Source: Candidatus Wallbacteria bacterium
GTDB lineage: Bacteria; Muiribacteriota; UBA6191; JACPRK01
Reading direction: 5' to 3'
DNA length: 64,000 nucleotides
NCBI GenBank assembly: GCA_016213845.1
Contig: JACQZN010000049.1
Coordinates: 15,574-79,573, forward strand
In this document: positions 37,901 through 56,564 of the stretch, piece after piece
How the letters are laid out: each line of letters begins with the position of its first letter
Numbering within the stretch: position 1 is the first letter of the stretch
Made by a program: the position numbers and the translations under genes
Notes under the pieces: model-generated
Seen by the model: the letters and a program-made list of their open reading frames with translations, nothing else
Database searches by the model: none
Told to the model about the DNA's origin: nothing

Positions 37901-37906
37901 ACCGTC

Positions 37907-39301
<1,395 letters not shown>

Positions 39302-39326
39302 GCCGTGTGACAGGAACGTGACGGTC

Positions 39327-39500
39327 GAGGGGAGCATCGAAGTTCCCCTCAAAGTCGGACCCGCGGAGGCGGAAATCGGGGGCTGGCTCCGAAACCCCGC
39401 ATGAAATCTGCCCCATGCCGAACCGGTTGCTTGGGGTTTCGGTGCCTGCACCTGATTTTCGCCGACTTTGCCGGAGCCCTGGGAGCGCATCGAAGTTCCC
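39327..39500. other. Structured intergenic element: two similar hairpins flanking a long multibranch stem
   Basis: GAGGGGAGC-ATCGAA-GTTCCCCTC (39327-39350) and GGGAGC-GCATCGAA-GTTCCC (39481-39500); CAAAGTCGG/CCGACTTTG and CCGAAACCCC/GGGGTTTCGG stems. Confidence 0.65.
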
Positions 39501-39563
39501 TTCCCATCCGAGGGCCCGACAGGTCATAATGAAAGGGATAGGGAGGGCGTTCGAGCGCCCCAC

Positions 39564-40730
39564 TTGGCAGAGGAGAAACGACATAGCCTTCTGGTCGTTG
39601 ACGACGAGAAGGAGATCACGGCCTCGCTCGTCGGGCTGTTTCGGCGCGAGTTCCGGGTCATCCCGGCAAACTCCGCCGCGGAAGCGCTCGAAGCGCTCGA
39701 GCGCGAAGAGGTCCACGTCCTCATGACGGACCAGCGAATGCCCGGCACGACCGGAACGGCCTTCCTGGCTTCGCTGGCGGACCGCCACCCCGACATGGTG
39801 CGCATCCTGCTCACCGGCTATGCCGACGTGCAGGCCGCCATTGACGCCATCAACTCCGGACAGGTTTACCGGTACATCACAAAGCCCTGGAACCCCGAGG
39901 AGCTGACCGCCATCGTCCGGCAGGCCGTTCAGCGCCACACGCTGATCCGGGAACGCGCCCAGCTCATCACCGATCTGCAGGCCGCCAACGAAGAGCTCCG
40001 CGAGCTCGACCGCGTCCGTCGGGCGTTCATGGAGGTCGCCGGCCACGAGCTCAAGACCCCCATCACCGTGCTCCTGGGCTACACGCACCTCATCCAGAGC
40101 GGGTGCTATGGCGCCCTCCCAGACACGGCGAAGCCCGCGCTCGGCAACATCACCAAGACCCTCGCCCACCTCAACGAGCTCGTGATGCGCATGCTCAAGC
40201 TGCTCAAGGCCCAGATGCCCTCCGGCGCCATGAGCTGGGAAGAGCTGCCGTTGGCAGACGTCGTCCGAGAGACCCAAGGGATGATCCAGCTCTTCTTGGA
40301 CCTGCGCAAGCAGTCGCTTCGCGTCCGGCTGGACCCGCCAGACCTGCGGGTGCGCGGCGACCACCACAAGCTGGTCGACATCCTCGTGAACCTCTTGACC
40401 AACTCCATCAAGTTCAGCAAGGACGGAGCCGAGCTCGAGCTCGAGGCCGTCGCCGAGCCCGGCGGACATGTCCGCGTCACGGTCGCCGATCCGGGCGTGG
40501 GCATTTCCGACGAGGACCTGCCCCATGTCTTCGACCACTTCTTCGCCAGCTTCGACGTCGGCCACCACTCGACCGGGGACTACCAGTTCGGCAGGCGCGG
40601 CGTGGGCCTGGGGCTGGCCATCGTGAAGCGCTTCGTGGAGCTGCACGGCGGCACGCTGGCGCTCCAGTCGAAAAAGGACGCCGGCACCCGGGTGAGCTTC
40701 ACGGTGCCGATGGCCCGGCCCACGGCCTGA
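39564..40730 (+). CDS. Hybrid REC-histidine kinase (cytoplasmic)
   Basis: LLVVDDE, TDQRMP, KPW, GHELKTP, NSIKFS and GVGLGL motifs; start uncertain (TTG 39468 or 39564). Confidence 0.9.
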   Translation: MAEEKRHSLLVVDDEKEITASLVGLFRREFRVIPANSAAEALEALEREEVHVLMTDQRMPGTTGTAFLASLADRHPDMVRILLTGYADVQAAIDAINSGQVYRYITKPWNPEELTAIVRQAVQRHTLIRERAQLITDLQAANEELRELDRVRRAFMEVAGHELKTPITVLLGYTHLIQSGCYGALPDTAKPALGNITKTLAHLNELVMRMLKLLKAQMPSGAMSWEELPLADVVRETQGMIQLFLDLRKQSLRVRLDPPDLRVRGDHHKLVDILVNLLTNSIKFSKDGAELELEAVAEPGGHVRVTVADPGVGISDEDLPHVFDHFFASFDVGHHSTGDYQFGRRGVGLGLAIVKRFVELHGGTLALQSKKDAGTRVSFTVPMARPTA

Positions 40731-40802: not shown

Positions 40803-41390
40803 TCAGTTGTCGGTGACGACGATGACGCGCTGGTACTTCAGGAAGTCCCACTTCGCCGCCGCGTCGACTACCGCAGCCGCGGAGGCATCGTCCAGGATGC
40901 CGTCTGAGTTGAAATCGGAGCCGATGGCTGCCAGTTTGACCACCAGCGGGTTCTCGCCGGCCTGGGGGGCCTCGGTGGCCGACTTCATGTCGCCGGCGTA
41001 GGTGATGACGCCATTCTCCTGGGCGTACTCGAAGTTGCTCTCGAAGTTGCCGTAGACGAGCTGCCCGCTCTGGGAGTAGAACCGCGGCCCCATGCCGCGG
41101 GACAGTTGGGTGCCGCGAGCGTCGATGATGAGCCCGGTGTGGGCGCCCTCGGGCGGGATGCCGATCGAGCCACCCGGCCGCGCGGCGGTGGCGATCTTCA
41201 TCTTCGAACCCTTGGACTTGCGGGCCGCCTTCTTCTTCATGGCGTGCGCGCTGGACTTCTTCGACTTGGCCTTGTCCGGGCCAAGCCCCTCGAAGGCCGG
41301 CGTCGCGGCCCACGCGACGGGCTGCGTCACGAGCGCCAAGGCCAGCAACTTCGAAATTGTCGTTCGATTCAGTTTCAGCAAGCCAAACAC
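40803..41390 (-). CDS. Secreted protein with a Lys-rich N-terminus and a TGLIIDARG domain (as seen C-terminally in some LPP20-like lipoproteins)
   Basis: Signal peptide; HTGLIIDARG...RGMGP...G..VYG and AGENPL motifs. Confidence 0.65.
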   Translation of the reverse strand: MFGLLKLNRTTISKLLALALVTQPVAWAATPAFEGLGPDKAKSKKSSAHAMKKKAARKSKGSKMKIATAARPGGSIGIPPEGAHTGLIIDARGTQLSRGMGPRFYSQSGQLVYGNFESNFEYAQENGVITYAGDMKSATEAPQAGENPLVVKLAAIGSDFNSDGILDDASAAAVVDAAAKWDFLKYQRVIVVTDN

Positions 41391-41460: not shown

Positions 41461-42207
41461 TCACTTCTCCATCTCCTGGATCAGCTGCTCGAGGTCGACC
41501 GTCACCGAGCCCGCCGCGGGGGCCGGACGCCGCCGCGCCGGCGAGCGCAACTTCACGGGCGGATGTGCCAGCTCCGCGGTGGCCCGCGCACGGGCCGCCA
41601 CCGGCGCGGACGGCTCCTCGAAGGCCGCCAGCGTTGGGTCGTCCACCTCATCCGGCTGCCCGGCTACTGGCGCGCGGTCGTGCTGAGCCATCCTTTCGCG
41701 GACAGTGGCCAGGAGCTGCTCGCGGCGACGGGGGTCGGCCTGCGACTCCACGGTGGTCACCAGCTGGGTGCGCGCCTGTTCGAGCTCCTCGCGAAGAGAC
41801 TTGTAGAGCACTTCCGAGCTCGAGAGCAGCCCCGCGAGGCGTTCGAAGTAGCGGCGAATCTGCTCGCCATCTTCGGGAAATCGCTCCTGGAGACTTGCCC
41901 GGAGCTCGTCCACCTTGTCGACCTTGCTCCGCAGCGACTGCATCGTGCGAGCGGAGCCACCCCCGATGACCTGCAGGTCGGCCGCGACGCGGGACGCCGA
42001 GGGCGGGCCCTTGTCGAGCCGTGCGCCGAGCTGAACCTGGTCGATGCGGCTCTGGTAGTCGACGAGCTGCTGGTGGCTTGCCCGGAAGTCTTTCTCGATA
42101 TCGCCGAGGATGTCGAGCACTTCGCTCGCCACGGCGACGCCTGTCGTCAGGCAGCAGCAGGCCGCGGCGATGCCGAGTCTGCCGATGAACGAACGCGCTG
42201 GGGGCAT
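41461..42207 (-). CDS. Secreted coiled-coil hypothetical protein
   Basis: Signal peptide, helical charged body, typical codon bias. Confidence 0.65.
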   Translation of the reverse strand: MPPARSFIGRLGIAAACCCLTTGVAVASEVLDILGDIEKDFRASHQQLVDYQSRIDQVQLGARLDKGPPSASRVAADLQVIGGGSARTMQSLRSKVDKVDELRASLQERFPEDGEQIRRYFERLAGLLSSSEVLYKSLREELEQARTQLVTTVESQADPRRREQLLATVRERMAQHDRAPVAGQPDEVDDPTLAAFEEPSAPVAARARATAELAHPPVKLRSPARRRPAPAAGSVTVDLEQLIQEMEK

Positions 42208-42481: not shown

Positions 42482-43915
42482 TCACGCCGCGGGGGAGACG
42501 CCGTCGGAGGCTTCGACCTGCGGACGGGCCGGCAGCAGCTCCGGCGTCAGGCCGCGCTTGCTGAACGCCATCGAGGCCAGCGTCACGGCGTCGGCCTCGA
42601 GAATGTCGTCGGGGACGCATTGCCCGGTCGTCATGTAGCTGGCGCCCTCGCGGTGCCCCGCGAGCAGGGAGACGACGGAGCCGAAACAGGAGGTTTCGTC
42701 GGTCTTGGTGACCAGCACCTTCTGGAAGCCAAGCTCCTTGAACCCGGCGGTGATTCCCCGCAGGTCGGAGAGCTTCGTCAAGGCGCTGACCAGCAGGTGC
42801 GTCTCGATCGGCATGCCGAACTCGAGGAACTTCTTCAGATCGAGCAGGTCCTCGCGATTGCGGGGGCTGCGGCCCACCGTGTCGATCAGGATGACGTCCT
42901 TGTTGCGGAAGCCGTGGACCAGCTCGATCATCTCCTCGGGCTTGAAGACGACCTTGACCGGGACCTCGACGATCTCGGCGTACTTCTTGAGCTGCTCCGG
43001 AGCCGCGATCCGGTAGGTGTCGATGGTGATGAAGGCGACGTCGAGCCTGTGGTTGAACATCAGGCCGCCGGCAAGCTTGGCCAGGGTCGTGGTCTTGCCG
43101 ACGCCGGTTGGGCCGACCAGGGCGACGAGCTTGCCCTTCTGACCGCCGACGAGCCCGAGTCCACCGGCCACGGAGAGCCGGGAGGCCAGGTACTCGACGG
43201 CGCGCTCGCGGACCCGGGAAGGCTGGCGCAGCTCCCGCTCGGAGAGGGCCTCCACGAGGTACTGGCGCACCTCGCAGATGAGGTCGTCGGCCAGCTCATT
43301 GGCGCGCAGAGTCTGCATCGCCAGCTCGACGTACTGCAGGTCCCGGGCGGGGGCCGGGTCCCGGATGAGGATCATCGGTCCGACCGAGCCGCTGTCCGTG
43401 GCGAGGGCGTCGGAGGGAGAGCCGGAACAATCCGTTCCGGTCGGTCCCTCGGGGCTCGACGAGGGCGGTGCAGAAACCGGTCCGGCGGGCGGTTCCGCCG
43501 GTGACGCCTTGAGCTGACTCAAGACATCCTTCAAGTCTTTCAACTCCGAGAGGACGGAGAGCTGCTGCTTGATCTGGAGGATCTCGTCCTTCATCAGGAC
43601 CAGCTCCTGCGACGGGGGGGGCGGGGCGAGCTGCGCCGGCGGGTCCGACCGCAACTGCGGAGAGGGGGCAATCTCGGCGACGCCGGAGCTGAGCAGCTGC
43701 CGGGCGGCCTCGACGGTCGGATGGGAGCGCGCCTCGCCGCTGGACCGATCGGCGCGCACGCCGACCACCTCGATCCATTCCCGGCGGAAGAAGCCGAAGA
43801 TGCCGCCTCGCTTGTGGGCGGCGGCGTGGACGATCTCGACCTCGGGCCCGAGCTCCTTGCGGAGCTTCTCGTAGGCTTCCTGTCGCGTGGGCGCGGTGAC
43901 TCTCCGGATCAGCAT
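42482..43915 (-). CDS. flhF: SRP-like GTPase FlhF
   Basis: N-terminal EA..K.RKELG.E..I; GPTGVGKTTTLAKLA, DTYRIAAPEQL, DTVGRS, TKTDE, GQ.VPDD. Confidence 0.93.
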   Translation of the reverse strand: MLIRRVTAPTRQEAYEKLRKELGPEVEIVHAAAHKRGGIFGFFRREWIEVVGVRADRSSGEARSHPTVEAARQLLSSGVAEIAPSPQLRSDPPAQLAPPPPSQELVLMKDEILQIKQQLSVLSELKDLKDVLSQLKASPAEPPAGPVSAPPSSSPEGPTGTDCSGSPSDALATDSGSVGPMILIRDPAPARDLQYVELAMQTLRANELADDLICEVRQYLVEALSERELRQPSRVRERAVEYLASRLSVAGGLGLVGGQKGKLVALVGPTGVGKTTTLAKLAGGLMFNHRLDVAFITIDTYRIAAPEQLKKYAEIVEVPVKVVFKPEEMIELVHGFRNKDVILIDTVGRSPRNREDLLDLKKFLEFGMPIETHLLVSALTKLSDLRGITAGFKELGFQKVLVTKTDETSCFGSVVSLLAGHREGASYMTTGQCVPDDILEADAVTLASMAFSKRGLTPELLPARPQVEASDGVSPAA

Positions 43916-43950: not shown

Positions 43951-44910
43951 TCAGGACCTGCGGAAGAGGCCGGCGAGGCGCTCGAAAAATCCTGGCTGGT
44001 TCGCGGGGGCGGGCGGGGCCGGCGAGTCGAACAGGCCGGCGACTATGTTGGTGATGCAGACCGAAGCGTACGAGTTCGGATAGAGCATCACCACGGGCTT
44101 CTGGCGCCGCACGCTGAGGCTGACGTTCTCGTCCTCGAGGACGAAGCCGGCGTAGTCGACCCTGAGCTGCAGATGCTCGCGCGCCACCTTGCTGAAGCGC
44201 CGCGCAACCAGCAGCCCCTCCTCGGGGTCCTTGACCTTGTTGACGACGATCGACGTCCTCGGCACGCTCGACCCCTCCATCGCCAGCGTCTTGAGGACGC
44301 CATAGGCGTCGGCCATCGCGGTCGGCTCGGGGGTGGTGACGAGCAGGACTTCGTCGGCCGCGCGCACGAAGGAGAGGACGTTGCGGGAGAGCCCCGCCCC
44401 GGTGTCGATGAGCAGCACGTCGGAGTAGGACTCCAGGCGTCGCAGGTTTTGCAGCAGCTCGCCCATCGCCCGGTCGTCGAGGTCGGCCAGCTCGGCCATA
44501 CCGCTGCCTCCGGCGATGAACTTCACGCCCGGAGGTCCGCTCACCAGGATTCCCGGCAAGTCGCGCTTGCCCTTGAGGACGTGGTACAGCGTGTACTGGG
44601 GACGCACACCGAAGAGCACGTCCAGGTTGGCCATGCCGAGGTCGGCGTCGAAAGCCAGAACGGACTTGCCAAGCCGCGTCATCGCGACGGCCAGGTTTGC
44701 GACCATGCTGCTCTTGCCGACGCCGCCCTTGCCGCTCGTCACGGTGATGACGCGGGCGCGCTTTGCCTGGACAGGCTCGACCGCCTGTGGCGCTGGCGGG
44801 GCAGGCCGCACCGAGGGCAGGGCGCGGAGCCCAGGAGCGGGATCGCGCCGACGGGGCGCCATCATCGCGTGCGAGCTGGCCTGGGTTCGGCTGGGCTGGG
44901 TCATGGTCAT
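43951..44910 (-). CDS. flhG: MinD-like ATPase FlhG/FleN (paralog without DQAxxLR)
   Basis: [37 protein letters not shown]; C-terminal amphipathic GFFERLAGLF. Confidence 0.9.
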   Translation of the reverse strand: MTMTQPSRTQASSHAMMAPRRRDPAPGLRALPSVRPAPPAPQAVEPVQAKRARVITVTSGKGGVGKSSMVANLAVAMTRLGKSVLAFDADLGMANLDVLFGVRPQYTLYHVLKGKRDLPGILVSGPPGVKFIAGGSGMAELADLDDRAMGELLQNLRRLESYSDVLLIDTGAGLSRNVLSFVRAADEVLLVTTPEPTAMADAYGVLKTLAMEGSSVPRTSIVVNKVKDPEEGLLVARRFSKVAREHLQLRVDYAGFVLEDENVSLSVRRQKPVVMLYPNSYASVCITNIVAGLFDSPAPPAPANQPGFFERLAGLFRRS

Positions 44911-45054: not shown

Positions 45055-45936
45055 TCAGTGAAACCAGCCGGCGAGCCGTTCCAGGAAGCCTCTGAACCCT
45101 CCGTGGCCGGTCTGCTCGCCCTCCAGCAGCTTGGCGCCGATCTCCCGTATGCCAGCTGCCGCGCTACTGTCCGGGTAGGCCAGAATCAGCGCCTTCTGCT
45201 CGCGCACGGCGCTGCCAACGGCGGAGTCCTCGCGCACCGAACCGATCGCCTTCAGGTTCGCGGCCAGAAATCGCTTCACCACAAGCCCGAGCTTGTCGTG
45301 AACCGCCTTGGCTTCGAAATCGCGGCGCACCCGGTTGACCACCAGTCGCACGTCGACACCCGGGTTGGAAGCGTAGAGCGCCTTGATGATGCCGTAGGCG
45401 TCCGCCATCGCGGGCGGCTCGGGCACGGTCACCACCAGCACCGTGTCGGCAGCCAGCGCGAAGCCGAGCACGTTCTTGCTGATGCCGGCGGCCGTATCGA
45501 TCAGCACGAAATCGGCGTCCTGCGCCACCCGATGAAAGGCCGTCAGGAGCCTCTCCCGCGCAGCGTCGCCGAGGTCCGCAAGCTCCGCGACGCCGTTGCC
45601 CCCGGGGATGATGCGGATGCCCTCCGGCCCTTCCACCATCACTTCTTGCAGCGTCCGCGCCCCGGACAGCACGTCCATCACGCTGAACACCGCGTGCAGC
45701 CCGAGCGCCACCGTCACGTTCGCCAGACCCAGGTCCGCGTCCATGATCAGCACCCGCTTGCCCCTCTTCGCCAGGGAGAGCGCCAGGTTGATCGTGAGGT
45801 TGGTCTTGCCGACGCCGCCCTTGCCGCTCGTCATCGCCAGGACCCTGGGGCCTCGAGCCGGTGCCGCAAAGCCCGGAACCGAGGCCGATACGGGCTGGCG
45901 CGCCAGCTCTCGGAGTTTGACAGCTTGGTCTCTCAT
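45055..45936 (-). CDS. flhG: MinD-like ATPase FlhG/FleN (paralog with DQAxxLR)
   Basis: MRDQAVKLR; [34 protein letters not shown]; [10 protein letters not shown]; start could extend to 45999. Confidence 0.9.
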
Positions 45937-46023
45937 CGGCCCTGCAGTTCCCTCGATGCCCCGAAAACCGTTGGGCTCCGGACGAATCGCACTCATCATA
46001 TCACAAGATCTCGCCCAACGGCA

Positions 46024-47979
46024 CTAGATTTGTTCGGTCGCGCCCACGATCGCCAGCGCCGGCCGGCCTTCCGCGGGCCCGCCGATCCGCCTCCGCAGCT
46101 CCGGCCTCACCTCGCGGGAGATCTCCCGGCGCGACAGCACCGCCAGCTCCGGGAGCCAGTGTCCGAACAGGTTCCTCACGTGCCGGCGCAGCGTCGGCTT
46201 CGTCAAGAGCACCGGGCGCAGCCCGTCCTTCTCGAAGGCCTCGCAGCCGTCCGTCAACATCCCCAGGAGCGACTGGAGCCTTTGAGGTGAGATGGCCAGG
46301 AAGTCCTCCTGGGCGACATAGGCACCCTCGAGCTCCTTCTCCAGATCATCGGCCAGCACCATCACCGGCAAGCTCCCCGCCGCCGTCCGGAGGTGGCCGG
46401 AGACCTGCCGGGCCAGCGCGGCGCGCACGCATTCCGTCAGGAGCGCAGGCTGCTTGGCCAGCTCCTTGGCGCTCGCGACGGCCTCCAGGATGCCGGCGGC
46501 GTCGCGGATGCCGACTCCCTCGGCGAGCAGCCCGCGCAAGACGGCCAGGAGCGCGCCCCGATCCACACCGTCCACCGCCTCGAAGAGCGCCGGCTTCGCC
46601 CGTCTCACTTGACTCAACAGGTCTTCCAACTCCTGACGACCCATGAGCTCGTCCGCGTAGGCTCGCACCTTCTTGGCGACGAAGGCGGCGATCCGGCCCT
46701 CGACCGGCTCTCCGGCCTCCCGGCTCCCCGGGAGACGCCCCTCCCCGACCTGCTGCCCACGCAGGTCGAGCGTGTAGCTCAGTCGCGTGAGCCCCTCGTC
46801 GACGGTGACGCTGATAGGCGGCACGGCCAGCCCCAGCTCGTCCCTGATCTGGCGCCGCACCTGCGACAGCTCGGCGTCCAGCCGGCCGCCCTTCTCCTGG
46901 AGAGCCTCGAAAACGCCTTGCGATAGCCGGACCTCTAGCGGCCGGAACCCGAGCTCCCTGGGGGCCGCGGCGGCCGTCACCTCGAGCTGGTCGGGCTCGA
47001 CGGAGAGTCCCTTCCAGGCGGCCCAGCCGAAGATCCCCGCCAGCGCGACCAGCGGCAGCCCGGCCACGCCGGCCGAAAGGCCGCAAACGGCGAGCAGACT
47101 GCCGACCACGCCCGCAGCCCCGGCCATCGGGCGGGTGCTCGAGAAAACCTGGGCGACTGTTTCGCCGGCGACGCTCTGGCCGCTGGCGCTCTTGGTGATG
47201 AGCAGTCCTGTGGCGAAGCTGATCAAGAGCGACGGCACCAGCGAGGCGAGCCCGTCGCCGACGGAAAGCAATGCGAACGTTGAGGCGACGCGGGCCCAGT
47301 CGCCGCTGTCATTCGACCAGCCGAAGACCAGCCCGGCGCCCAGGTTCACACCGAAGATGGCGATGCTGGCGATGGTCTCGTTCTTTACCCAGCGCGAGGC
47401 CCCGTCCATGTGGCCGAAGAAGTCCGATTCGCGGTGGACCTGGTCGACCCGTTCCTCGGCCTCGGCGGCGGTGATCTGGTGGCTGTCGAGCTGGGCCTGG
47501 ACCGCCATGAGCTTGTGGGGGAGACCGTCGAGCCGGAACCTGGCGGCAACCTCCGCCACGCGCTCGGAGCCCTTGGAGATGACCTGATACTGGATGCAGA
47601 CGAGGATGAAGAAGAGCACCAGTCCGACGGCCAGACTGCCGCCGACGACGAAGCCGCCGAAGGCGCGGATCAGGATTCCCTCGAACTCCGCCCCTTGCGT
47701 CAGGATGAGGCGGGTAGAGGCGACGTTCAGGCTCAGGCGGAGAAAGGTGAGCACCAGCAAGAGCGTGGGGAAGCACGACAGGTCCAGCGTGCGGCGCACG
47801 GAGCTGACCATCAGCAGGCACATCACTGCCATCGCCAGGTTCAGCACCAGGGCCACGTCCAGGAGTCTGGCCGGAATCGGGACGACCAGCACCAGGATGA
47901 TGCCGACCAGACCCAAAGGTACGAGTGACTCCGCTTGCCGCTGAAGCGCGGCGGCGTCCACGCCACATCTGTTGCTCAT
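46024..47979 (-). CDS. flhA: Divergent FlhA export gate protein
   Basis: FPTLLL..T..RLSLNVASTRLIL, RVAEVAARF.LD.LP.K, FFGHMDGA, LSVGDGL, LL.EGVGIRD, PELAVLS..EI. Confidence 0.92.
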   Translation of the reverse strand: MSNRCGVDAAALQRQAESLVPLGLVGIILVLVVPIPARLLDVALVLNLAMAVMCLLMVSSVRRTLDLSCFPTLLLVLTFLRLSLNVASTRLILTQGAEFEGILIRAFGGFVVGGSLAVGLVLFFILVCIQYQVISKGSERVAEVAARFRLDGLPHKLMAVQAQLDSHQITAAEAEERVDQVHRESDFFGHMDGASRWVKNETIASIAIFGVNLGAGLVFGWSNDSGDWARVASTFALLSVGDGLASLVPSLLISFATGLLITKSASGQSVAGETVAQVFSSTRPMAGAAGVVGSLLAVCGLSAGVAGLPLVALAGIFGWAAWKGLSVEPDQLEVTAAAAPRELGFRPLEVRLSQGVFEALQEKGGRLDAELSQVRRQIRDELGLAVPPISVTVDEGLTRLSYTLDLRGQQVGEGRLPGSREAGEPVEGRIAAFVAKKVRAYADELMGRQELEDLLSQVRRAKPALFEAVDGVDRGALLAVLRGLLAEGVGIRDAAGILEAVASAKELAKQPALLTECVRAALARQVSGHLRTAAGSLPVMVLADDLEKELEGAYVAQEDFLAISPQRLQSLLGMLTDGCEAFEKDGLRPVLLTKPTLRRHVRNLFGHWLPELAVLSRREISREVRPELRRRIGGPAEGRPALAIVGATEQI

Positions 47980-47995: not shown

Positions 47996-48808
47996 TCAGG
48001 TTCGCGGGGCGCCGATGGCGCTCCCGGGTGTCGAGTTCACGATGGAGTTCGGAGTCCGGAGCTTTGCCCGCGCGCGCGGTCCGGGCTCCGCGGCGGTGCG
48101 CCGCTCGATGGCCTCGAGGATCTGTCCCCGCACGTGCGGGTCGCCCTCTGCCATCTTGAAGTCGTCCTTCACCTCGACGCGCGTCATCCGCTGCGAGGCA
48201 GCGAAGCTGGCGCGCGCCAGGAGGTGTTCGGCCGTACCGAACGCCAGCCAGGTCACCGTCAGCCAGAGCGCGAGCCGCAGTGCGCCGGCCAGCACGCCAG
48301 CCAGCTCCTGGGCCGGCGTGATCGCGGGGAATGCCGCCCAGACAAGGGCGGCGACGGCCGCGAGCTTGGCCGCGATCCAGGCTGTGTTGGCAGCCAGGTT
48401 GGGCAGCGCCAGGCGGGTCCAGGGCAGCTGGCCCAGGCGATCCAGCCTAGGGGCGAGCCGCGCTGCGGCGAAGAGCCTGGAGCCCAGGGCCAGTCGTACC
48501 GTGGCGCTGGCAGCGAACCCGGCCAGCGCCGCCGGCACGAGTAGCCTGCCCACTGGGGAAACGAAGGTCTCGAGTTGCGGTAGCCCGCCTTCGGCCGCAG
48601 CCGAAAGCCCATTGTTGGCCGCGTTCAGAAGTTCGTCGAAGGCGGCCGGACCGGCGGCGCGCATCGCCAGGAGCGCAGCCAGGAACGCCAGCGGATGGGC
48701 CAGATTCGACGCCTCGGCCTGCTCGCCGGCGGTGGCCGCGCGGCGCAGCCTTCGCTGGGTCGGCTCCTCCGTGCGGCTGTCGTCCAGCAGCGGCAGGAGA
48801 TCGATCAT
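47996..48808 (-). CDS. flhB: Divergent, C-terminally truncated FlhB (270 aa)
   Basis: RTEEPT.RRL N-terminus; RMTRVEVKDDFK.AEGDP.VR; no NPTH motif or downstream domain; ATG overlaps the fliR stop. Confidence 0.85.
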   Translation of the reverse strand: MIDLLPLLDDSRTEEPTQRRLRRAATAGEQAEASNLAHPLAFLAALLAMRAAGPAAFDELLNAANNGLSAAAEGGLPQLETFVSPVGRLLVPAALAGFAASATVRLALGSRLFAAARLAPRLDRLGQLPWTRLALPNLAANTAWIAAKLAAVAALVWAAFPAITPAQELAGVLAGALRLALWLTVTWLAFGTAEHLLARASFAASQRMTRVEVKDDFKMAEGDPHVRGQILEAIERRTAAEPGPRARAKLRTPNSIVNSTPGSAIGAPRT

Positions 48809-49593
48809 CGCGTCGCCTCCAGTCCGGTCGAGAGCTGCGTCGGCTCGGTCAGCGCGGCGAGCGCGGCCGGCGAGTAGACCATCGGAGCGGCAACAGCCAG
48901 GATCACGAGCATCGCCAGCGCCCGGACGCCGCCGAACGCGTCGCCCGCAGCCTCGAGCCCGGCCACGCGCGCCCCCATGGCCAGCGCCAGGTCTGCCGCG
49001 AACACCACGGCCATCAACGGCAGCACCGCGGCTGCCGCCACGTGCAGGTAGGCGCCGCCCAACCCTTCGACGGCGGCCAGCATCGCGCCTGCCGTCGGCC
49101 AGCTGCCCGGCGCGAGGAGCTGGAAGCTGCGCCCCAGGGCGGCGACGACGGCGCCGTCGGCCCCGCACTCCAGAGCGGCCGCGATTGCGGCCATCGCCGC
49201 GACGTGCCCGGCGACGCTGGCGCGGCCGCCGTCCAGGAGCGAGCAGCTCGAGGACGGCGCTGGGAGTGCCGAGGCGGCGAACAGCTCGCCCGCGTGCCGC
49301 AGAGCCTCCACGATCAGCCGCACGGGCAGCGCCAGCAAGAGCCCGATCATGAGCTCGGCGATCGCGGCCGCCAGAAGCGCCGGCGCCGACCCGGCGACCA
49401 GAGCAGGCTGCCGGCCCGACACGAGCGACGCCGCGACGGCCAGGATCAGGGCGGCGCGTACCGACGACGGCAAAACACCGCCCAGCGGTGGCGCCGCGGC
49501 GGCGACGGCTCCGGCCGTTCTGCAGGCGCAGACGATCCAGGTCTGCGCCGTCGGGGACGCGACGATCCAGGCGAGCAGGTCGAGGTCGGACAT
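48805..49593 (-). CDS. fliR: Divergent FliR
   Basis: P..VRAAL, ELMIGLLL......AL..AGE, ALGRSF..L and LP......DLAL....RVA motifs; lies between fliQ and flhB. Confidence 0.78.
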   Translation of the reverse strand: MSDLDLLAWIVASPTAQTWIVCACRTAGAVAAAAPPLGGVLPSSVRAALILAVAASLVSGRQPALVAGSAPALLAAAIAELMIGLLLALPVRLIVEALRHAGELFAASALPAPSSSCSLLDGGRASVAGHVAAMAAIAAALECGADGAVVAALGRSFQLLAPGSWPTAGAMLAAVEGLGGAYLHVAAAAVLPLMAVVFAADLALAMGARVAGLEAAGDAFGGVRALAMLVILAVAAPMVYSPAALAALTEPTQLSTGLEATR

Positions 49594-49617: not shown

Positions 49618-49887
49618 TCAAAGGATGAATCGGGTAAAGTCGCCCAGGATCTCGACGGTAAGGCGGACCAGCTGGCCGAACAGGCCAGGGCCGAAGGCGC
49701 ACGCCACGGCGGCGACGCCGATGAGCTTCGGCACGAAGGCCAGGTTCGGCTCGTGAACGGACGTGGCCGTCTGCGCCAGCGAAGCCACGAGCCCGATGGC
49801 CGCGGCCATGCCGGCCAGGGGCAGCGCAAGCCTGAAGGCCATCTCCAGGTTCTGTCCGAACAGTCCCAGGATCAGATACTCGTCCAC
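49618..49887 (-). CDS. fliQ: FliQ
   Basis: GTG after GGAGG; 89 aa; GLVASLAQTATSVHEPNLAFVPKL. Confidence 0.88.
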   Translation of the reverse strand: MDEYLILGLFGQNLEMAFRLALPLAGMAAAIGLVASLAQTATSVHEPNLAFVPKLIGVAAVACAFGPGLFGQLVRLTVEILGDFTRFIL

Positions 49888-49955
49888 GTGAATCCTCCGA
49901 TAGGCCGCGGGCCAGGGCGACGGCGACGGGACCGGCCGTCGAGCCTGCCGGCGGA

Positions 49956-50648
49956 TCAGATCCGGATCGACTTGACCAGCGAGGCGACGACCAGGTGCCA
50001 GCCGTCGGCCAGCACGAACAGCAGCAGCTTGAAAGGGATGGCCAGCGAAGCCGGGTTGACGGCGGCCAGTCCAAGCGACGTCACGGTCGTTGCGACCACG
50101 AGGTCGATGACCAGGAAGGGAAGGAAGATGGCGATTCCGATCTGGAAGGCGGTCTTCAGCTCGGAGATCACGAAGGCGGGCACCAGCGCCGAGAGGCAGA
50201 CGTCCTCGCAGGACCTGGGCCTGGCCTGCCCGGCAAGGCTGGTGAAGAGCATCAGGTCGCTCTCGCGCGTCTGGTTGAGCATGAAGCGGCGGAGCGGGCC
50301 GAGCGCGTTCGTGACGGCGCCGGCAGCGTCGGTCTTGCCGGAAAGGTAAGGCGCGACGGCCTTGTCGGCGATCTGGGCGGTGACCGGCGCCATCGTGTAG
50401 AGCGTCAAGAAGAAAGCCAGCGCGGTCAAGATCCTGTCCGGCGGCGCCTCGCCGACTCCCAGCGCCTGCCGAAGGAAGGTGAGGACGAGCAGGATGCGCG
50501 TGAAGCTCGTGAGCAGGGCGAGCATCGCCGGCAGCGCCGAGAAGACGAAGCCCGCAAGAGCAATCGCCATCCAGAGTTGCTGGCCGTCCATCGACTGGAT
50601 CAGCGCCCTGAGGCCGTCGACCGATGGTGCGAGTGCGGCGATGCTCAT
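49956..50648 (-). CDS. fliP: FliP with altered gate residues
   Basis: TSFTRI..VL.FLRQALG, PAFVISELKTAFQIG..IFLPFLVIDLVVA, PFKLLLFVLADGW. Confidence 0.93.
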   Translation of the reverse strand: MSIAALAPSVDGLRALIQSMDGQQLWMAIALAGFVFSALPAMLALLTSFTRILLVLTFLRQALGVGEAPPDRILTALAFFLTLYTMAPVTAQIADKAVAPYLSGKTDAAGAVTNALGPLRRFMLNQTRESDLMLFTSLAGQARPRSCEDVCLSALVPAFVISELKTAFQIGIAIFLPFLVIDLVVATTVTSLGLAAVNPASLAIPFKLLLFVLADGWHLVVASLVKSIRI

Positions 50649-50953
50649 GCGGCTTCCTCCCCGTCCACGCTACGCAGGAGGCGGCCGGTCGAGGCCTCGC
50701 GGCCGAGTTTTTCGATGAGCTCAGCGCGGCCGTTGCCGACGCTGAGCAAGAGCTCGCGACCATCGATTTCCACGGTGACCAGGCGAACACCCTGCCCCAG
50801 CACGAGGCTGCCGGTGACCTTCATACGAGCGCCCCGAGCGGCGGCTCCTCCGCGCGTCCGCAGATATAGACCAACGACCGGCACGGCCACGACGACGGCC
50901 GCGAGCGCAATCAGCGATCGCCACATGGGTAGGACCTCCGCCTCTGTCAGCAC
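50645..50953 (-). CDS. fliO: FliO/FliZ
   Basis: Single TM, then MKV..SL.LG....L..VEI.GRELLL.V; ATGA overlap with fliP. Confidence 0.8.
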   Translation of the reverse strand: MLTEAEVLPMWRSLIALAAVVVAVPVVGLYLRTRGGAAARGARMKVTGSLVLGQGVRLVTVEIDGRELLLSVGNGRAELIEKLGREASTGRLLRSVDGEEAA

Positions 50954-50977: not shown

Positions 50978-51976
50978 TCAGGCCCGGACCGCGGGCCGAC
51001 CCCTCGACCCGCTCGTTTCAGGCGTCAAAGGATTCAACCACTCCGCCGGGCTGGCGACCTCCACCAGCCTCAAGGCCAGGTAACCGTCCTCGACGACCAC
51101 CTCGCCCCGGGCCATCTCGCGCCCCAGCGCCGAGAGCGTGGCCAGCTCACCGGCCAGCCTGTCGAGCCGGATGACCTGACCGGCCCTGAGCGCGGCCAGC
51201 TCCACGAGCGGAAGGACGCTCCCGCCAATCTCCGCAGCCAGCCGGACAGAAGTGTCTTCGACTTCTTCCACCTGCTCGAGCGCATCGAGAGCAGCCGGCT
51301 CGGCCACAATCGGTTGCGGAGCTGCCACCTGGGCGGCGACCGCCGCCTGCGGTCTCACCAGCGCCGCCAGATCGCGCACCAGCGACGCCTCGCCGTAGAG
51401 CCGCAGGCGTGCCGGCCCTCCCGCACGCCTCTCCAGGTCGAAGTCGAGCGCGACCATCCCCCTATCGCCCTGGGCTGCGACCGGCCAGCATCCCGATCCG
51501 ACGCTCCACGGAGCCATTTCCACGGCGACGTTCTTCTGGAGCTCCACTCGAAAGGCGACCTCGATGTCGCGCGCAACCGAATCCATCAGCACGGCGATGG
51601 TCTCCTCGGAGCGAACCGGCCGCGTGGTGGCCACGAGCGCCAGCGCGGCCCGGGCGCGGAACTGCCCCGTCAGCTCCAGGACGACCGCCCACACACCGCT
51701 CTCCGCACAGCACTGGCGCGCAACCGACGGCGCCACCAGACCAAGCTCCGGAGGCAGCGGCTCGGCCACCCCGCCGACCGCGGCGCTCACCCGTGCAGCG
51801 GCGGCACCGAAAATCCTGTGCGCCGCCCGCGAGGCGTCGGAGAAGTCGGCCGGCGCGAACAGGGCCTGGGACACGAGAGCGATACCGTCTCCATCCTCCG
51901 ATAGCCCTCTCAGCTCCGAGTCGGAAAGGAAAGCCCTGCTCACGGTCACCTCGCTACTCAATCGGCCCTGGGACAC
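50978..51976 (-). CDS. FliY/FliN-like C-ring protein: degenerate CheC-like N-domain plus SpoA domain
   Basis: C-terminal V.L.AEIG......EL..L..GQVIRLDRLAGE....ARGEVVV SpoA motif. Confidence 0.8.
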   Translation of the reverse strand: MSQGRLSSEVTVSRAFLSDSELRGLSEDGDGIALVSQALFAPADFSDASRAAHRIFGAAAARVSAAVGGVAEPLPPELGLVAPSVARQCCAESGVWAVVLELTGQFRARAALALVATTRPVRSEETIAVLMDSVARDIEVAFRVELQKNVAVEMAPWSVGSGCWPVAAQGDRGMVALDFDLERRAGGPARLRLYGEASLVRDLAALVRPQAAVAAQVAAPQPIVAEPAALDALEQVEEVEDTSVRLAAEIGGSVLPLVELAALRAGQVIRLDRLAGELATLSALGREMARGEVVVEDGYLALRLVEVASPAEWLNPLTPETSGSRGRPAVRA

Positions 51977-52367: not shown

Positions 52368-53867
52368 CTACTTTGCGGCCGGTTTGGTCCCGCTCAGACC
52401 ATCCAGCAGCGACTGGACCTGCTTCTTCGTCTCGGCGTCCGGGTTCAGCTTCAGGGCGGCCTCGAGCTCCTGGCGCGCCACCGTCTTGGCCGAGGCGTCG
52501 CCCGCGATGGCCTGGTCGATCTTCACGCGCGCGAGCGCCAGCCTCACCTTCGGGTTCTTCCCATCCACGGCCACCGCGCCCTGGTAGTACGCAAGCGCCT
52601 CGGCCAGCACACTCGCGGACTTGTCCTTCTTCCACTTCTCGAAGCTCTCGGAGCCCTTTTTCAAGTAGTCCGCAGCAGTCAGGCCCTTGGCCTGCCCTCT
52701 GGAGATGTCGGCCAGCTCCTTTTCACGGGCGGCCTCGCGGCGCTTTTCCGCCTGCTGCGCTTGCGCCAGGGCCAGCTGCTTGCTCAGCGCCTGGATCTGC
52801 TCGACCTTCAGCGTCGCGAAGCCGTGAAGATCGTCACCCGGGCGCGTCAGTCGGGCCACTTCTTCGTAGGCCTTCAGCGCGTCGTCGTTGCGCGAGTCGA
52901 GCTCGGCGAACCACCCGATCATGAAGTGGAACTGAGGGTTCTTCGGGTCGGCCTTGGTGCGGGATTCGTAGTAGCTCTGACTCAGGGCCCTGAGCCCGAA
53001 GTCGTCCCTGGCCAGCAGCCCGTTGTTGGCCTGCAGCGCAGCCACGTAGAGCGGAATCGCGCGCTGGTAGTTCTTCTGCTTGGCCAGCGCCACCGACTGC
53101 TCGAACTTCTGCTCCGGCGTCAGTTTGGACAGATCGGCATCGGGTGGCGCGACCGTGGCGGGGGTCGACCTCGCCGCGGACGTCGCAGGTTGCTCGGCCG
53201 CTCCCGAACCGCCGGGGCCCTGGGCATCGGCCGCCTCCACCTTGCCGCCGAAGGCCGCCTTCCCCGCCGCCGGGTCGGGCGTTGCCGCGACTGGGTCGGC
53301 CGCACCCAGATCCCGCTCCAGCTCGTCGAGACCGTCTCCTCCGCCGGCCGGCGTTGCTGGCGGAGAGGACCGCGAGCTCGCGGCTACCGGTGTGGCCGAG
53401 GAGCCTCCCTGCGCTCCCCCGGCCTGCGCGGTCGAGGCTGCCCGAGCGGGTCTGGGAACAACTGCGACGATGGCGTCCAGCCGCTTCTCCAGCGCGGCCA
53501 GCTTCTCCTGCCCGGCCTTTCCGGACGACCGCATCCGCTCCAGGAGCTTCTCGGCCAGAAGTTTCTTTCCCGACTTCTCGTAGACATCGAAAAGTCGCTC
53601 CAGGGCGCGCTCGTTCTCGGGGTCCAGCGTCAGCGCATTCTCGAAGTCGATCCCGGCCTCGTCGAGCCTGCCGGCGGCCAGGTTCTTCTCCCCGGCCTCC
53701 ATCGAGTCCTTCAGATTCTCCTCGAATGCATACTCCGGCGCGGACGACCCGGAGGTCGCAGTGGTTGCGCTCGGCGCTGCGCCGGCTTCGAACCCGCCCG
53801 ATTCTGCGGCCGAAACCCGGGCCAGCGCCAGCATCGCCACGAACAGCCCGATCCCTGGTGTGCGCAT
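52368..53867 (-). CDS. Secreted TPR protein
   Basis: Signal peptide MRTPGIGLFVAMLALARVSAAE; TPR-like FENALTLDPEN and LEAALKLNPD; Ala/Pro linker. Confidence 0.85.
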   Translation of the reverse strand: MRTPGIGLFVAMLALARVSAAESGGFEAGAAPSATTATSGSSAPEYAFEENLKDSMEAGEKNLAAGRLDEAGIDFENALTLDPENERALERLFDVYEKSGKKLLAEKLLERMRSSGKAGQEKLAALEKRLDAIVAVVPRPARAASTAQAGGAQGGSSATPVAASSRSSPPATPAGGGDGLDELERDLGAADPVAATPDPAAGKAAFGGKVEAADAQGPGGSGAAEQPATSAARSTPATVAPPDADLSKLTPEQKFEQSVALAKQKNYQRAIPLYVAALQANNGLLARDDFGLRALSQSYYESRTKADPKNPQFHFMIGWFAELDSRNDDALKAYEEVARLTRPGDDLHGFATLKVEQIQALSKQLALAQAQQAEKRREAAREKELADISRGQAKGLTAADYLKKGSESFEKWKKDKSASVLAEALAYYQGAVAVDGKNPKVRLALARVKIDQAIAGDASAKTVARQELEAALKLNPDAETKKQVQSLLDGLSGTKPAAK

Positions 53868-53926
53868 CCTCTTTCCACCTCTACCCCGCCATGGACAGCG
53901 CCGCCAGCGGGGCGTTCCGGCCTGTC

Positions 53927-55108
53927 TCAGAACTGGAGCTGGAGTCCAGCGAACAGCCGGGAGCGATAGCCTTGCGGGATGGTCGATTGCAGGTTGATGG
54001 CGCCACTGAGATCCACCACCCAGTTGTTGCTCAGCTTCAACTTGAAGCCTGCCGACGCGTCGACGTTCTCGCCGTTGCTCTGCCAGTCGAATCCGTTGAG
54101 CTCCAGCACCAGGTCGAGCTTGCGGTTGGCCTGGAGGTCGACGCCAAGGTTGTAGAAAGTGATGTCGGGCACCCCCGAGTTGGTGCGGTCGAGGCCGTTG
54201 ACGAAGAGCGCGCCGAACTCCCCGTGGATGCCGGTGTTGCGCATGCGCTTGGTGAAGTTGAAGGCACCGACGTAGTCGACGCCGCTCGAGCCGAAGCGCG
54301 TCACGACCTTCTTGGCGCCGTTGCGCATCCCAAGCGTGGCGGCGAAGCTCACCTTCGACTCCGGGTTGTCGTAGAAGCGGTACTTGGTGAGCGCGCCGAA
54401 GTCCATCAGGCCGAACGTGTTGAAGTCCGGGATCAGGGGGAAGTTGCGGCCTTCCTCGTCGACGATGCTGTACTGGATCGAGATCTCCAGATCGTGAGCC
54501 GGAACGAAGGCGTAGGCAAACGGGAAGATCAGCTGCTCTATCTTCTGGTTGGGTAACAACGGAGCGCCGAAGCTGCGCTTGAAGACGGTGTAGTCGACGC
54601 CTGAGCGGAAGTGTATGAAGCCCTTCGCGGGGACCTCCGCCGTTATGGTTTGCCCCAGACCCGTCAATCCCCGCTGCGAGAGCGTGAAGAAACGCGGGTG
54701 CACGTGGCGGGGGGCGAAGACGAAGTCCTCCACGTCGTCGAAACCGCGTTCCTCCTTGCGCGCCTCCTTGCCTCGGTACGGCTCCGTCGGCCCCTCGAAG
54801 GACTGCGAGCGCTTCGGATACGCTTGCGACAGTGTCCGGTTCTCGAACCCCGTCGGACGCGGGAGCTGGCGCTCCTCGGCCAGGCCCGGGATGACGGGCG
54901 GCGGGATCGCCCTGGGGCTTTGTTGCACGGGCGGCGGCTCCAGCTGGCGGCTCTGGTCGAGCGCCTGCTCCAGGTGGTCGCCGAACCCGTACTTCTTGAG
55001 CTCCTCGTTGGAGACGGCCAGGACCGGCGCCGTCGCGGATAGCGCGATCGCCGCAGCCAGTACGGGCAACAGCGGCCCCGGGCGCCATGGGCGTCGAGGA
55101 TGAGTCAC
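53927..55108 (-). CDS. Putative outer-membrane beta-barrel protein
   Basis: Signal peptide; alternating aromatic beta-strands; GLTGL motif; C-terminal LFAGLQLQF (BAM-type signal). Confidence 0.78.
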   Translation of the reverse strand: MTHPRRPWRPGPLLPVLAAAIALSATAPVLAVSNEELKKYGFGDHLEQALDQSRQLEPPPVQQSPRAIPPPVIPGLAEERQLPRPTGFENRTLSQAYPKRSQSFEGPTEPYRGKEARKEERGFDDVEDFVFAPRHVHPRFFTLSQRGLTGLGQTITAEVPAKGFIHFRSGVDYTVFKRSFGAPLLPNQKIEQLIFPFAYAFVPAHDLEISIQYSIVDEEGRNFPLIPDFNTFGLMDFGALTKYRFYDNPESKVSFAATLGMRNGAKKVVTRFGSSGVDYVGAFNFTKRMRNTGIHGEFGALFVNGLDRTNSGVPDITFYNLGVDLQANRKLDLVLELNGFDWQSNGENVDASAGFKLKLSNNWVVDLSGAINLQSTIPQGYRSRLFAGLQLQF

Positions 55109-55142
55109 GTCATGACTATCGGCACTTGCCGTTACAGCGAGA

Positions 55143-56564
55143 GTGCCGCTAGTGTTGCCCGCGGGAGTCCACTTGGTTTCAATCGTCATCCCAGTCCTCA
55201 ACGAAGCGGCCGCCGCCGGCGCATGCCTCGACAGGCTGCGCCACTGGTGCCCCCCCAACGAGCTCATCGTGGCCGACGGCGGCAGCACGGACGGCACGCT
55301 GCAAGAGGTGGCGCGCCGCCCATGGGCCACGCTGGTCGACTGCCCGGCGGGTCGAGGCGCCCAGATGAACGCCGCCGCCGCACGTGCCCGCCACGAGACG
55401 CTGCTCTTTCTCCACGCGGATACCACGTTGCCCGAGGATGCCTTCGACGCCATCGCGCGGGCGCTCGAATCCCCCGACGTGGTCGGCGGCGGATTTCTCA
55501 AGCGCTATGACCCGGCCCCCCCGGTGCTCCTGGCCACCGAATGGCTTCTCAACCACGTGCGAGCCTCGCTCATGCGCGACCTGGTCGGGACCAACGCCAT
55601 CTTCGTGCGCGCACGGGACTTCCGGGCGCTCGGCGGGTATCGCGAGTGGCCGTTGCTGGAGGACGTCGACTTCTGCGACAGACTGAAGCGGCGCGGGCGG
55701 CTGGCCATCCTGCCCGGGCCGGTGCGGGTCTCGCCACGGAAGTACGTGAAGGAAGGAGCCTGGAGGCGCACGTGGGTCAACGCCCGGGTGATGTTCGGGT
55801 ACCGCGTGTTGAGCGAATCCCCGGAAGCACTGGCCCGGCTCTACGGGCGACCGGTTCGGCGCCCGCAGGCGTCAGCGGCTTCCATCAGCTTCGTCATCCC
55901 GACGCTGAACGAGGAAAAATGCCTCGCCAGATGTCTCGAGTCGATTGACCCGGCGGCGACCCAGGGAGTCGAGGTCATCGTCGCCGACGGCGGCAGCACG
56001 GACAGCACCGAGCAGATCGCCCGGCAGAGACCGGCAGTGCGCTTTCTGGCCTGCCCGGGGCGGGGCCGGGCACTTCAGCTCAACGCGGGCGCCCGGCTCG
56101 CCTCGGGGAGCATCCTGGCGTTCTTGCATGCCGACTCCGTGCTGCCCGCGGGCGCCGTCGAGCGGATCCGCTCCCTGATGACCTCGCCGGACCCGCCCGC
56201 GGCCGGCGCCTTCGAGATCGAGCTCGAGGCTTCGGGCTGGCGATACCGCCTGATCGAGCGGCTGTCGAACCTGCGCAACCGCTGGATGCAGACACCGTAC
56301 GGCGACCAGTGCCTCTTCCTGGAGCGCGAGACATTCCTGGGGGCGGGAGGATTCCCCGAGCAACCGTTCCTCGAGGACCTAGCGCTGGGCCTGGCGCTTC
56401 GCCGGGTGGGAACCATCCGCTTTCTCGGCTCGCCGCCGGTGCTGACTTCGGCGAGGAGATTCACCACGCTCGGCCCCCTCGTGACGGCGTCGCGCAACGC
56501 GCTGATCGCTCTCCTCTACCGGCTGGGAGTGAGCGCATCGACCTTGCAGCGTCTCTACGGATGA
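55143..56564 (+). CDS. Tandem double GT2 glycosyltransferase (two TIGR04283-like domains)
   Basis: Two complete copies of S.VIP.LNE...IVADGGSTD.T...GR..Q.NA.A...FLHAD...LED...S.R. Confidence 0.88.
   Translation: MPLVLPAGVHLVSIVIPVLNEAAAAGACLDRLRHWCPPNELIVADGGSTDGTLQEVARRPWATLVDCPAGRGAQMNAAAARARHETLLFLHADTTLPEDAFDAIARALESPDVVGGGFLKRYDPAPPVLLATEWLLNHVRASLMRDLVGTNAIFVRARDFRALGGYREWPLLEDVDFCDRLKRRGRLAILPGPVRVSPRKYVKEGAWRRTWVNARVMFGYRVLSESPEALARLYGRPVRRPQASAASISFVIPTLNEEKCLARCLESIDPAATQGVEVIVADGGSTDSTEQIARQRPAVRFLACPGRGRALQLNAGARLASGSILAFLHADSVLPAGAVERIRSLMTSPDPPAAGAFEIELEASGWRYRLIERLSNLRNRWMQTPYGDQCLFLERETFLGAGGFPEQPFLEDLALGLALRRVGTIRFLGSPPVLTSARRFTTLGPLVTASRNALIALLYRLGVSASTLQRLYG

Follow-up and report, generated by a model that had tools for sequence, protein, structure and literature searches.

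Does the FlhA homologue encoded on the minus strand at 46024..47979 lack subdomain D2, and, if so, what kind of export machine does it belong to? The window (a 64,000-nucleotide stretch of contig JACQZN010000049.1, whose positions are used here unless another contig is named) comes from a groundwater bacterium, Candidatus Wallbacteria, whose metagenome-assembled genome (G000; 83.9% complete, 135 contigs) belongs to a family designated f1. In canonical FlhA, subdomain D1 is formed by residues 362–434 and 484–503 and D2 by residues 435–483 (PMC7911332). Where D1 meets D2 there is a hydrophobic dimple, half of it contributed by D2, on which the chaperone-substrate complexes of FlgN, FliS and FliT dock (PMC9431611). 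Salmonella numbering is followed for canonical FlhA, and the 692-aa FlhA chain (PDB sequence) agrees with the residues named in PMC9431611. D2 is absent from the protein by sequence, profile and model, and the system around it is probably a reduced, flagellum-derived export core.

The 651-aa product (P0001) belongs to the FHIPEP superfamily, scoring 524.9 bits against the Pfam profile PF00771 (gathering cut-off 29.1), and its gene is the only FHIPEP gene in the genome. The top-scoring model was the FlhA equivalog TIGR01398, at 471.5 bits against a cut-off of 772.1; the SctV model TIGR01399 gave 378.8 bits against a cut-off of 692.25, so neither equivalog threshold was reached. Positions 1–402 and 457–656 of the 657 in the FHIPEP profile were matched inside a single open frame, and the 584-position NCBIfam model NF004571 aligned to P0001 in one stretch. 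Using phmmer against PDB sequences, residues 21–418 were aligned with residues 25–435 of the 692-aa FlhA chain and residues 436–634 with residues 494–691, leaving 17 query residues against 58 chain residues at the junction. The alignments with a 697-aa chain (query 416/430, chain 433/488) and a 702-aa chain (query 417/430, chain 430/485) were split at the same place. Compared with the published limits of 435–483, the aligned gap therefore identifies the missing block as D2; the D1 helix that follows it (484–503) is kept. Residues 401–416 of P0001 are SYTLDLRGQQVGEGRL and residues 429–450 are RIAAFVAKKVRAYADELMGRQE. Between them, the 12-residue linker PGSREAGEPVEG (residues 417–428; 46696..46731, minus strand) joins the last D1 strand to the helix RIAAFVAKKVRAYADELMG, and approximately 8–12 residues stand in place of D2. 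The positions of D456 and F459 are gone and that of T490 is occupied by Ala432; neither the four-subdomain D1-D2-D3-D4 architecture nor the D1/D2 dimple built on these three residues is found in P0001.

An AlphaFold2 model of residues 330–651, made with an input alignment of 150 rows, was confident (predicted local distance difference test, pLDDT, 91.5; predicted template-modelling score, pTM, 0.88). In the numbering of the model, which differs from that of the protein, a strand (80–86) is followed by a 10-residue loop (87–96) at the linker and a helix (97–111), with no additional domain. The model matched FlhA_C and SctV_C structures at a TM-score of ~0.8 and Z values of 24–30. Superposed on 6ch2_C (VIA-align), model residues 16–304 were placed on chain residues 360–690 (Z 29.0, root-mean-square deviation 2.4, 284 aligned), and ~42 chain residues had no model partner. 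D1, D3 and D4 matched the FlhA_C chains, and across the same range the solved chains were ~40 residues longer than the model. The original prediction, made from the sequence alone, had proposed that this FlhA lacks the whole of D2 and that the domain was removed by a clean in-frame excision. Both points are borne out: the alignments, the Pfam coverage and the model show that D2 is missing, and the excision is clean and in frame.

The deletion is not an assembly artefact. All 1956 bases of the gene are contained, with 6 substitutions and 0 gaps, in a 4727-nt contig of a different study (X2), and a ~90%-identical contig from a further study (X8) spans 46664–46875, also with 0 gaps. No indels in flhA were reported in the contigs of four public runs that were compared with the gene. 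The D2 deletion is common to two other genomes of family f1, one of the same genus (G065, 72% identity) and one of another genus (G066, 54%). The metagenomic protein P0020 (47–48% identity) is also D2-less, and the NCBI protein P0002 is of the G065 type.

If D2 is missing, the question is whether its clients are still encoded. The class was compared in 18 genomes, 8 of families f1–f4 (70–100% complete, one of them 100%) and 10 of the flagellated sister family f5; besides the f1 genomes, G061 (f3, 100% complete) and G062 (f4) are referred to below. No match to Flg_bb_rod, Flagellin_N, FliS or FliG_C was obtained in the 83.9%-complete source genome at E ≤ 0.001. In Pfam searches of families f1–f4, Flg_bb_rod, flagellin, FliS, FliE, FlgN and FliK were each found in 0 of the 8 genomes. 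The corresponding counts in f5 were 10/10 for Flg_bb_rod, flagellin, FliS and FliE, 9/10 for FlgN and 7/10 for FliK. Neither the source genome nor families f1–f4 as a whole were thus found to encode substrates and chaperones of their own (rod, hook, flagellin, FlgN, FliS). Across the phylum (n = 87), rod/hook proteins occur in 78 genomes and an FlhA match in 83, and outside family f1 the FlhA match is always split around a D2-sized insertion. Considering the phylum-wide counts together with those of f1–f4, a clade within a flagellated phylum has therefore lost the axial structure and kept the export core. The source genome accordingly carries an orphan flagellar export core, in which FliOPQR, FlhB, FlhA, FliHI and FliF are present and flagellin and the axial genes are absent. 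Elsewhere in the phylum, a 97%-complete genome of family f8 (G005) has an FlhA match in a 699-aa frame with the D2-sized insertion and no Flg_bb_rod match; it may represent an independent loss of the axial structure.

The gate partner of FlhA is also shortened. FlhB, encoded beside it (47996..48808, minus strand; 270 aa; PF01312, TIGR00328), consists of the transmembrane part and the linker only. Its matches cover positions 2–234 of 335 in PF01312 and 1–241 of 348 in TIGR00328, and the protein ends ~45 aa past the MTxxEVK..EGDP linker (alignment A5), so the NPTH autocleavage/switch domain is absent. It is with this C-terminal domain (FlhB_C) that the ruler of hook length works in the switch. 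A separate FlhB_C gene was not found in the source genome. The domain is also missing from G065, G066 and a further genome, G063; in G062 it is present, with NPTH replaced. A comparable gradation is observed in FlhA, where G061 and G062 keep a segment of D2 length in which DPLGH or GPGGQ stands in place of EPxFG and a residue other than Thr occupies the T490 position (alignment A4). FlhA D2 thus reads as a graded series across the families, with FlhB running parallel to it.

The reduced gene appears to be maintained. By the Nei-Gojobori method, the ratio of nonsynonymous to synonymous substitution rates (dN/dS) of flhA between G000 and G065 was 0.21 over the entire gene, 0.18 in its transmembrane half and 0.19 in the C-domain, which supports purifying selection on flhA, including the D2-less domain. 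The flagellar-core genes are intact open frames in several genomes.

The residues retained in the remainder of FlhA bear on what the gate may still do. R147, R154 and D158, which are needed for FlhA function (PMC7911332), correspond to R140, R147 and D151 of P0001 and are invariant in alignments A1 and A4. Arg-391, described as a node for gate activation (10.64898/2026.05.20.726703), corresponds to R375, which is invariant in the alignments as well. D208 is conservatively replaced by Glu201, and the charged FHIPEP loop is to this extent preserved. The GYXLI motif at the start of D1, which drives open-close motions of FlhA (PMC9431611), is not: P0001 reads EVRLSQGVF against the canonical E(V/L)GY.LI. 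According to the same paper, the linker of the neighbouring subunit binds D1 and D2, and filament-type export depends on the open form that this binding stabilises; D2 is bound in this way when the system switches from hook to filament. GYXLI is missing from all five FlhA proteins compared (G000, G065, G066, G061 and G062), in which the two Asp residues of IDAD are also replaced by Q, S or E and the D208 position is Glu.

These observations bear on the remaining parts of the original prediction. The motif strings that it quoted (RLSLN, RVAEVAARFRLD, MDGA and GDGL) are all in the open reading frame (ORF), together with RWVKNE and VQAQ; the changes of KFVxGD to RWVKNE and of IDAD to VQAQ are real and common to the relatives, and the charged residues are largely kept, as it had said. 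Its interpretation is partly supported: the excision and the retention of residues stood, but the prediction did not extend to the reduction of the whole system. More has changed here than the docking of late substrates by a flagellar FlhA, since no axial or chaperone genes were found in 8 genomes and the FlhB C-domain and GYXLI are lost. Ion coupling may be retained, as the conserved residues suggest.

Starting from the observed anatomy, its conservation and the gene absences, we consider that the locus probably encodes a switchless export core derived from a flagellum and kept for a non-flagellar role. In this course of events, the axial structure would have been lost first, together with the parts that sort export into classes of substrate. 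What is kept is the engine, namely FliPQR, the transmembrane parts of FlhB and FlhA, the charged loop, FliH/FliI, the FliF ring and the FliN-like protein, and also the placement factors FlhF and two FlhG/MinD-like ATPases. D2 would have degenerated after its clients vanished and would then have been excised in frame, giving a D1-D3-D4 cytoplasmic domain, and the FlhB C-terminal switch domain would have been lost in parallel. D2, FlhB_C and GYXLI all serve the ordered export of axial proteins by class, and their decay in f3 and f4 and the excision in f1 could be understood in this way because no axial proteins, chaperones or ruler are left. The remaining machine would assemble the ring and export one or more non-flagellar proteins without class switching. 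Several points weigh against this explanation. In a system that lacks FliE and a rod, no route is known by which cargo could pass beyond the inner membrane. An engine that works differently, or not at all, would be an equally good reading of the change from IDAD to VQAQ and of the missing GYXLI. The dN/dS values rise to 0.37–0.66 in more distant pairs, where dS is near saturation, and the absence calls come from Pfam searches at E ≤ 0.001 on metagenome-assembled genomes, among which a single one reaches 100% completeness.

Other explanations of the same observations were weighed against it. The core could be functional without being secretory and could instead have a regulatory role or provide a scaffold in the envelope or at the pole. 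In favour of this, FlhF and two MinD-like placement ATPases are kept, and the losses of FlhB_C, D2 and GYXLI remove the known substrate-handling surfaces. There are also precedents, although one of them depends on the nanotube model, which is itself disputed. Genes resembling the type III secretion system of flagella (FT3SS) are reported to be needed for type IV pilus twitching in non-flagellated Lysobacter (PMC7277350), and orphan CORE genes have been proposed as nanotube platforms (PMC6456723, section 12). However, the ATPase FliH-FliI has stayed intact and shows strong conservation (TIGR03497, 565 bits), and the retained FliPQR and loop charges of FlhA are hard to explain without translocation; we regard a purely structural or regulatory role as unlikely.

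It is quite unlikely, too, that the system is a non-functional relic heading for loss, whose decay would have begun with the deletions of D2 and FlhB_C. The flagellar regulon downstream of the core has been lost in its entirety, several conserved motifs are degenerate, and the equivalog scores are below cut-off for all parts but FliP and FlhF. Two genomes, G064 and G067, have no FlhA or FlhB match, but these are only 72% and 78% complete. Against decay, at least 12 genes have kept intact open frames in several genomes, which come from four families and diverge by up to ~65% in protein sequence, the dN/dS of flhA is 0.2, the deletions are clean and in frame with a confidently folded model, and synteny, including a tetratricopeptide repeat (TPR) gene, is conserved across families. 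The metagenomic origin of the genome, with its 135 contigs and 83.9% completeness, would allow an ordinary flagellar FlhA with a deletion introduced by assembly or binning and with flagellar genes in the unassembled parts. This we hold to be very improbable, since contigs from other studies carry the same junction without gaps, the deletion recurs in three genomes and in the metagenomic proteins P0002 and P0020, and the six flagellar families are missing in 8/8 relatives (one 100% complete) and present in nearly all sisters. The switchless, flagellum-derived export core remains the explanation that we prefer.

Orphan flagellar cores were already known; in the literature searched, we found no paper describing the natural combination of a D2-less FlhA with an FlhB lacking its C-terminal domain. 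D2 of FlhA and the C-domain of FlhB are the textbook modules for ordered, chaperone-guided export, and both are missing from a machine that appears to remain under purifying selection. The sister families with motif-decayed modules provide a natural deletion series, which shows the parts of a type III gate that serve the engine and those that serve substrate sorting. The sequences are also suitable for testing a minimal gate, and they suggest that this uncultured lineage from groundwater has a function in secretion or in the envelope that is still unexplored. We put forward, as a tentative proposal, that families f1–f4 carry a type III exporter of a kind not recognised before, which would be derived from the flagellum, lack rod, hook, filament and FlhB_C (and D2 in f1), and need neither the docking of chaperones nor a class switch to move non-flagellar cargo through the inner membrane. 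If this were true, it would represent, in living cells, the pared-down stage that has been postulated to lie between flagellum and injectisome, and the order in which modules were lost would be readable across four families.

The remaining genes of the core are located in the same cluster, all on the minus strand. FliR (48805..49593) matches PF01311, with TIGR01400 as its best match; FliQ (49618..49890) matches TIGR01402 (E 1.3e-11); FliP (49956..50648) matches PF00813 and exceeds the TIGR01103 cut-off (227.4 > 217.45); and FliO (50645..50953) matches TIGR03500 (E 3.9e-9). They are followed by a 332-aa FliN-like protein (50978..51976) with a C-terminal FliMN_C domain (PF01052 at residues 237–308; TIGR02480), an orthologue of which is at the same position in G062. 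On the other side of flhA, profile matches identify two MinD/FlhG-like ATPases, at 45055..45999 (same order in G065 and G061) and 43951..44910, and FlhF, a signal recognition particle-type GTPase, is encoded at 42482..43915 (TIGR03499, 187.6 > cut-off 174.15). FliO and FlhF are generally regarded as flagellum-specific. Each retained part, including these two, scores best against the flagellar model and not the injectisome model, and equivalog cut-offs are exceeded only by FliP and FlhF. The gene order is conserved in G065, G066, G061 and G062.

Directly upstream of the FliN-like gene lies the gene of the TPR protein (52368..53897, minus strand; TPR family matches, start codon uncertain), which has a hydrophobic N-terminus. 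G062, a member of another family, has a TPR protein in the corresponding place; the two share 35% identity over 289 aa (E 8e-49), and the protein therefore travels with the system. It is a candidate for an accessory role in the reduced system and, in the exporter tentatively proposed above, might as a membrane-anchored protein be a new partner.

Contig C78 carries a further locus with fliF, fliH and fliI, followed by a 134-aa ORF. This ORF, a FliJ candidate, had no significant family match. FliF (530 aa) is encoded on the plus strand at L007:13044-14636, which equals G000:C78:30344-31936. Its residues 436–524 include a weak FliG_C-like stretch (E 0.0098), and a search for FliG_C at E ≤ 0.001 detected no separate FliG in G000. 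Weak FliG_C matches were also present inside long ORFs of G065, G066 and G063, and G061 has a separate 319-aa FliG-like gene after fliF. Family f1 may have a FliF-FliG_C fusion.

Beside the cluster, on the opposite strand (36602–40730, plus), are a histidine kinase, a sigma-54-dependent response regulator and a hybrid kinase-receiver protein. A scan for sigma-54 promoters (TGGCAC-N5-TTGC, up to 2 mismatches) gave 53 matches, compared with 57 expected by chance, and none upstream of the cluster was convincing. The cluster is flanked by three minus-strand ORFs of coding-like composition, at 40803–41390, 41461–42207 and 53927–55501, for which no significant family match was obtained; the one at 41461–42207 has a weak ZapG-like match only. 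Farther away, the composition-based ORF list includes a 2799-aa ORF with high third-position GC at 12547–20946 (plus strand).

To place the protein among its homologues, the best 150 of 2739 representative C-domain matches were considered. Eighteen of these are collinear across the junction by coordinates, and all 12 of the 18 that were aligned lack the D2 segment, which 6 canonical controls have. The D2-less proteins fall into three groups. One consists of the close relatives P0002 and P0020. Another comprises metagenomic SctV-type proteins of 624–659 aa (P0025, P0048, P0157 and fragments), among which P0048 scores 747 on TIGR01399, above the cut-off; a homologue search with P0025 gave 6 metagenomic proteins. 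The last contains soluble fusions of an FlhB_C-like domain with FlhA_C, 425–466 aa long and without a transmembrane part (P0046, P0049, P0132 and P0075). P0049 is labelled as from a Chloroflexota metagenome-assembled genome, and the pair of domains is seen again in an Atlas cluster with 86 members, which is commonest in Spirochaetota. The SctV-type and fusion proteins are only 22–36% identical to P0001 and belong to other sequence groups, so their D2 losses look independent. The VQAQ and RWVKNE changes occur in none of them. D2 appears to be an insertion in D1 that has been repeatedly dispensable. The chlamydial flagellar-type FlhA might be D2-less as well, if NF004571, which aligned to P0001 in a single stretch, is the model for it. 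A search of genome contigs for related loci returned 9 distant loci only (32–34%; Syntrophus, Smithella and Desulfococcus-type genomes). In the literature searched, which left out most subscription journals, no description was found of a natural D2-less FlhA or SctV or of its pairing with a C-domain-less FlhB.

Among the closest known systems is canonical FlhA of Salmonella, Bacillus, Helicobacter and Vibrio (3a5i, 6ch1-3, 3mix, 3myd, 7amy), on which D1, D3 and D4 of the model superpose at Z 28–30. The FHIPEP transmembrane domain is shared, and flhB, fliPQR, fliO, flhF and flhG adjoin the gene as they do in flagellar systems. Unlike canonical FlhA, the protein of G000 lacks D2, the D456/F459 dimple and GYXLI, has Ala for T490 and VQAQ for IDAD, and scores below the TIGR01398 cut-off, in a genome without matches to axial proteins, FlgN or FliS. 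The injectisome protein SctV (YscV, CdsV, EscV, InvA, MxiA, SsaV) has the same fold (Z 24–29) and, as part of a type III system that arose from the flagellum and does not serve motility, sets the known precedent for co-option. However, the solved SctV chains are ~40 residues longer than the model, which is consistent with an equivalent of D2 being kept, P0001 scores higher as FlhA, and FliO and FlhF are present; the comparison covers the fold, the model scores and the export-core partners.

The nearest parallels in gene content are the FT3SS-like system of Lysobacter enzymogenes OH11, which is reported to secrete non-flagellar proteins while the hook cap FlgD is exported by it as well (PMC7688988), and the orphan CORE sets of Myxococci, Chloracidobacterium and Succinatimonas (PMC6456723, section 12). 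As in those cases, a flagellar export core is found in a bacterium without flagellin. The excerpts of PMC7688988, PMC7277350 and PMC6456723 do not mention a loss of FlhA or FlhB domains in Lysobacter or in the orphan CORE sets. As far as these excerpts describe it, Lysobacter OH11 keeps some axial genes, as its export of FlgD indicates, whereas in the present lineage the reduction reaches the gate proteins themselves.

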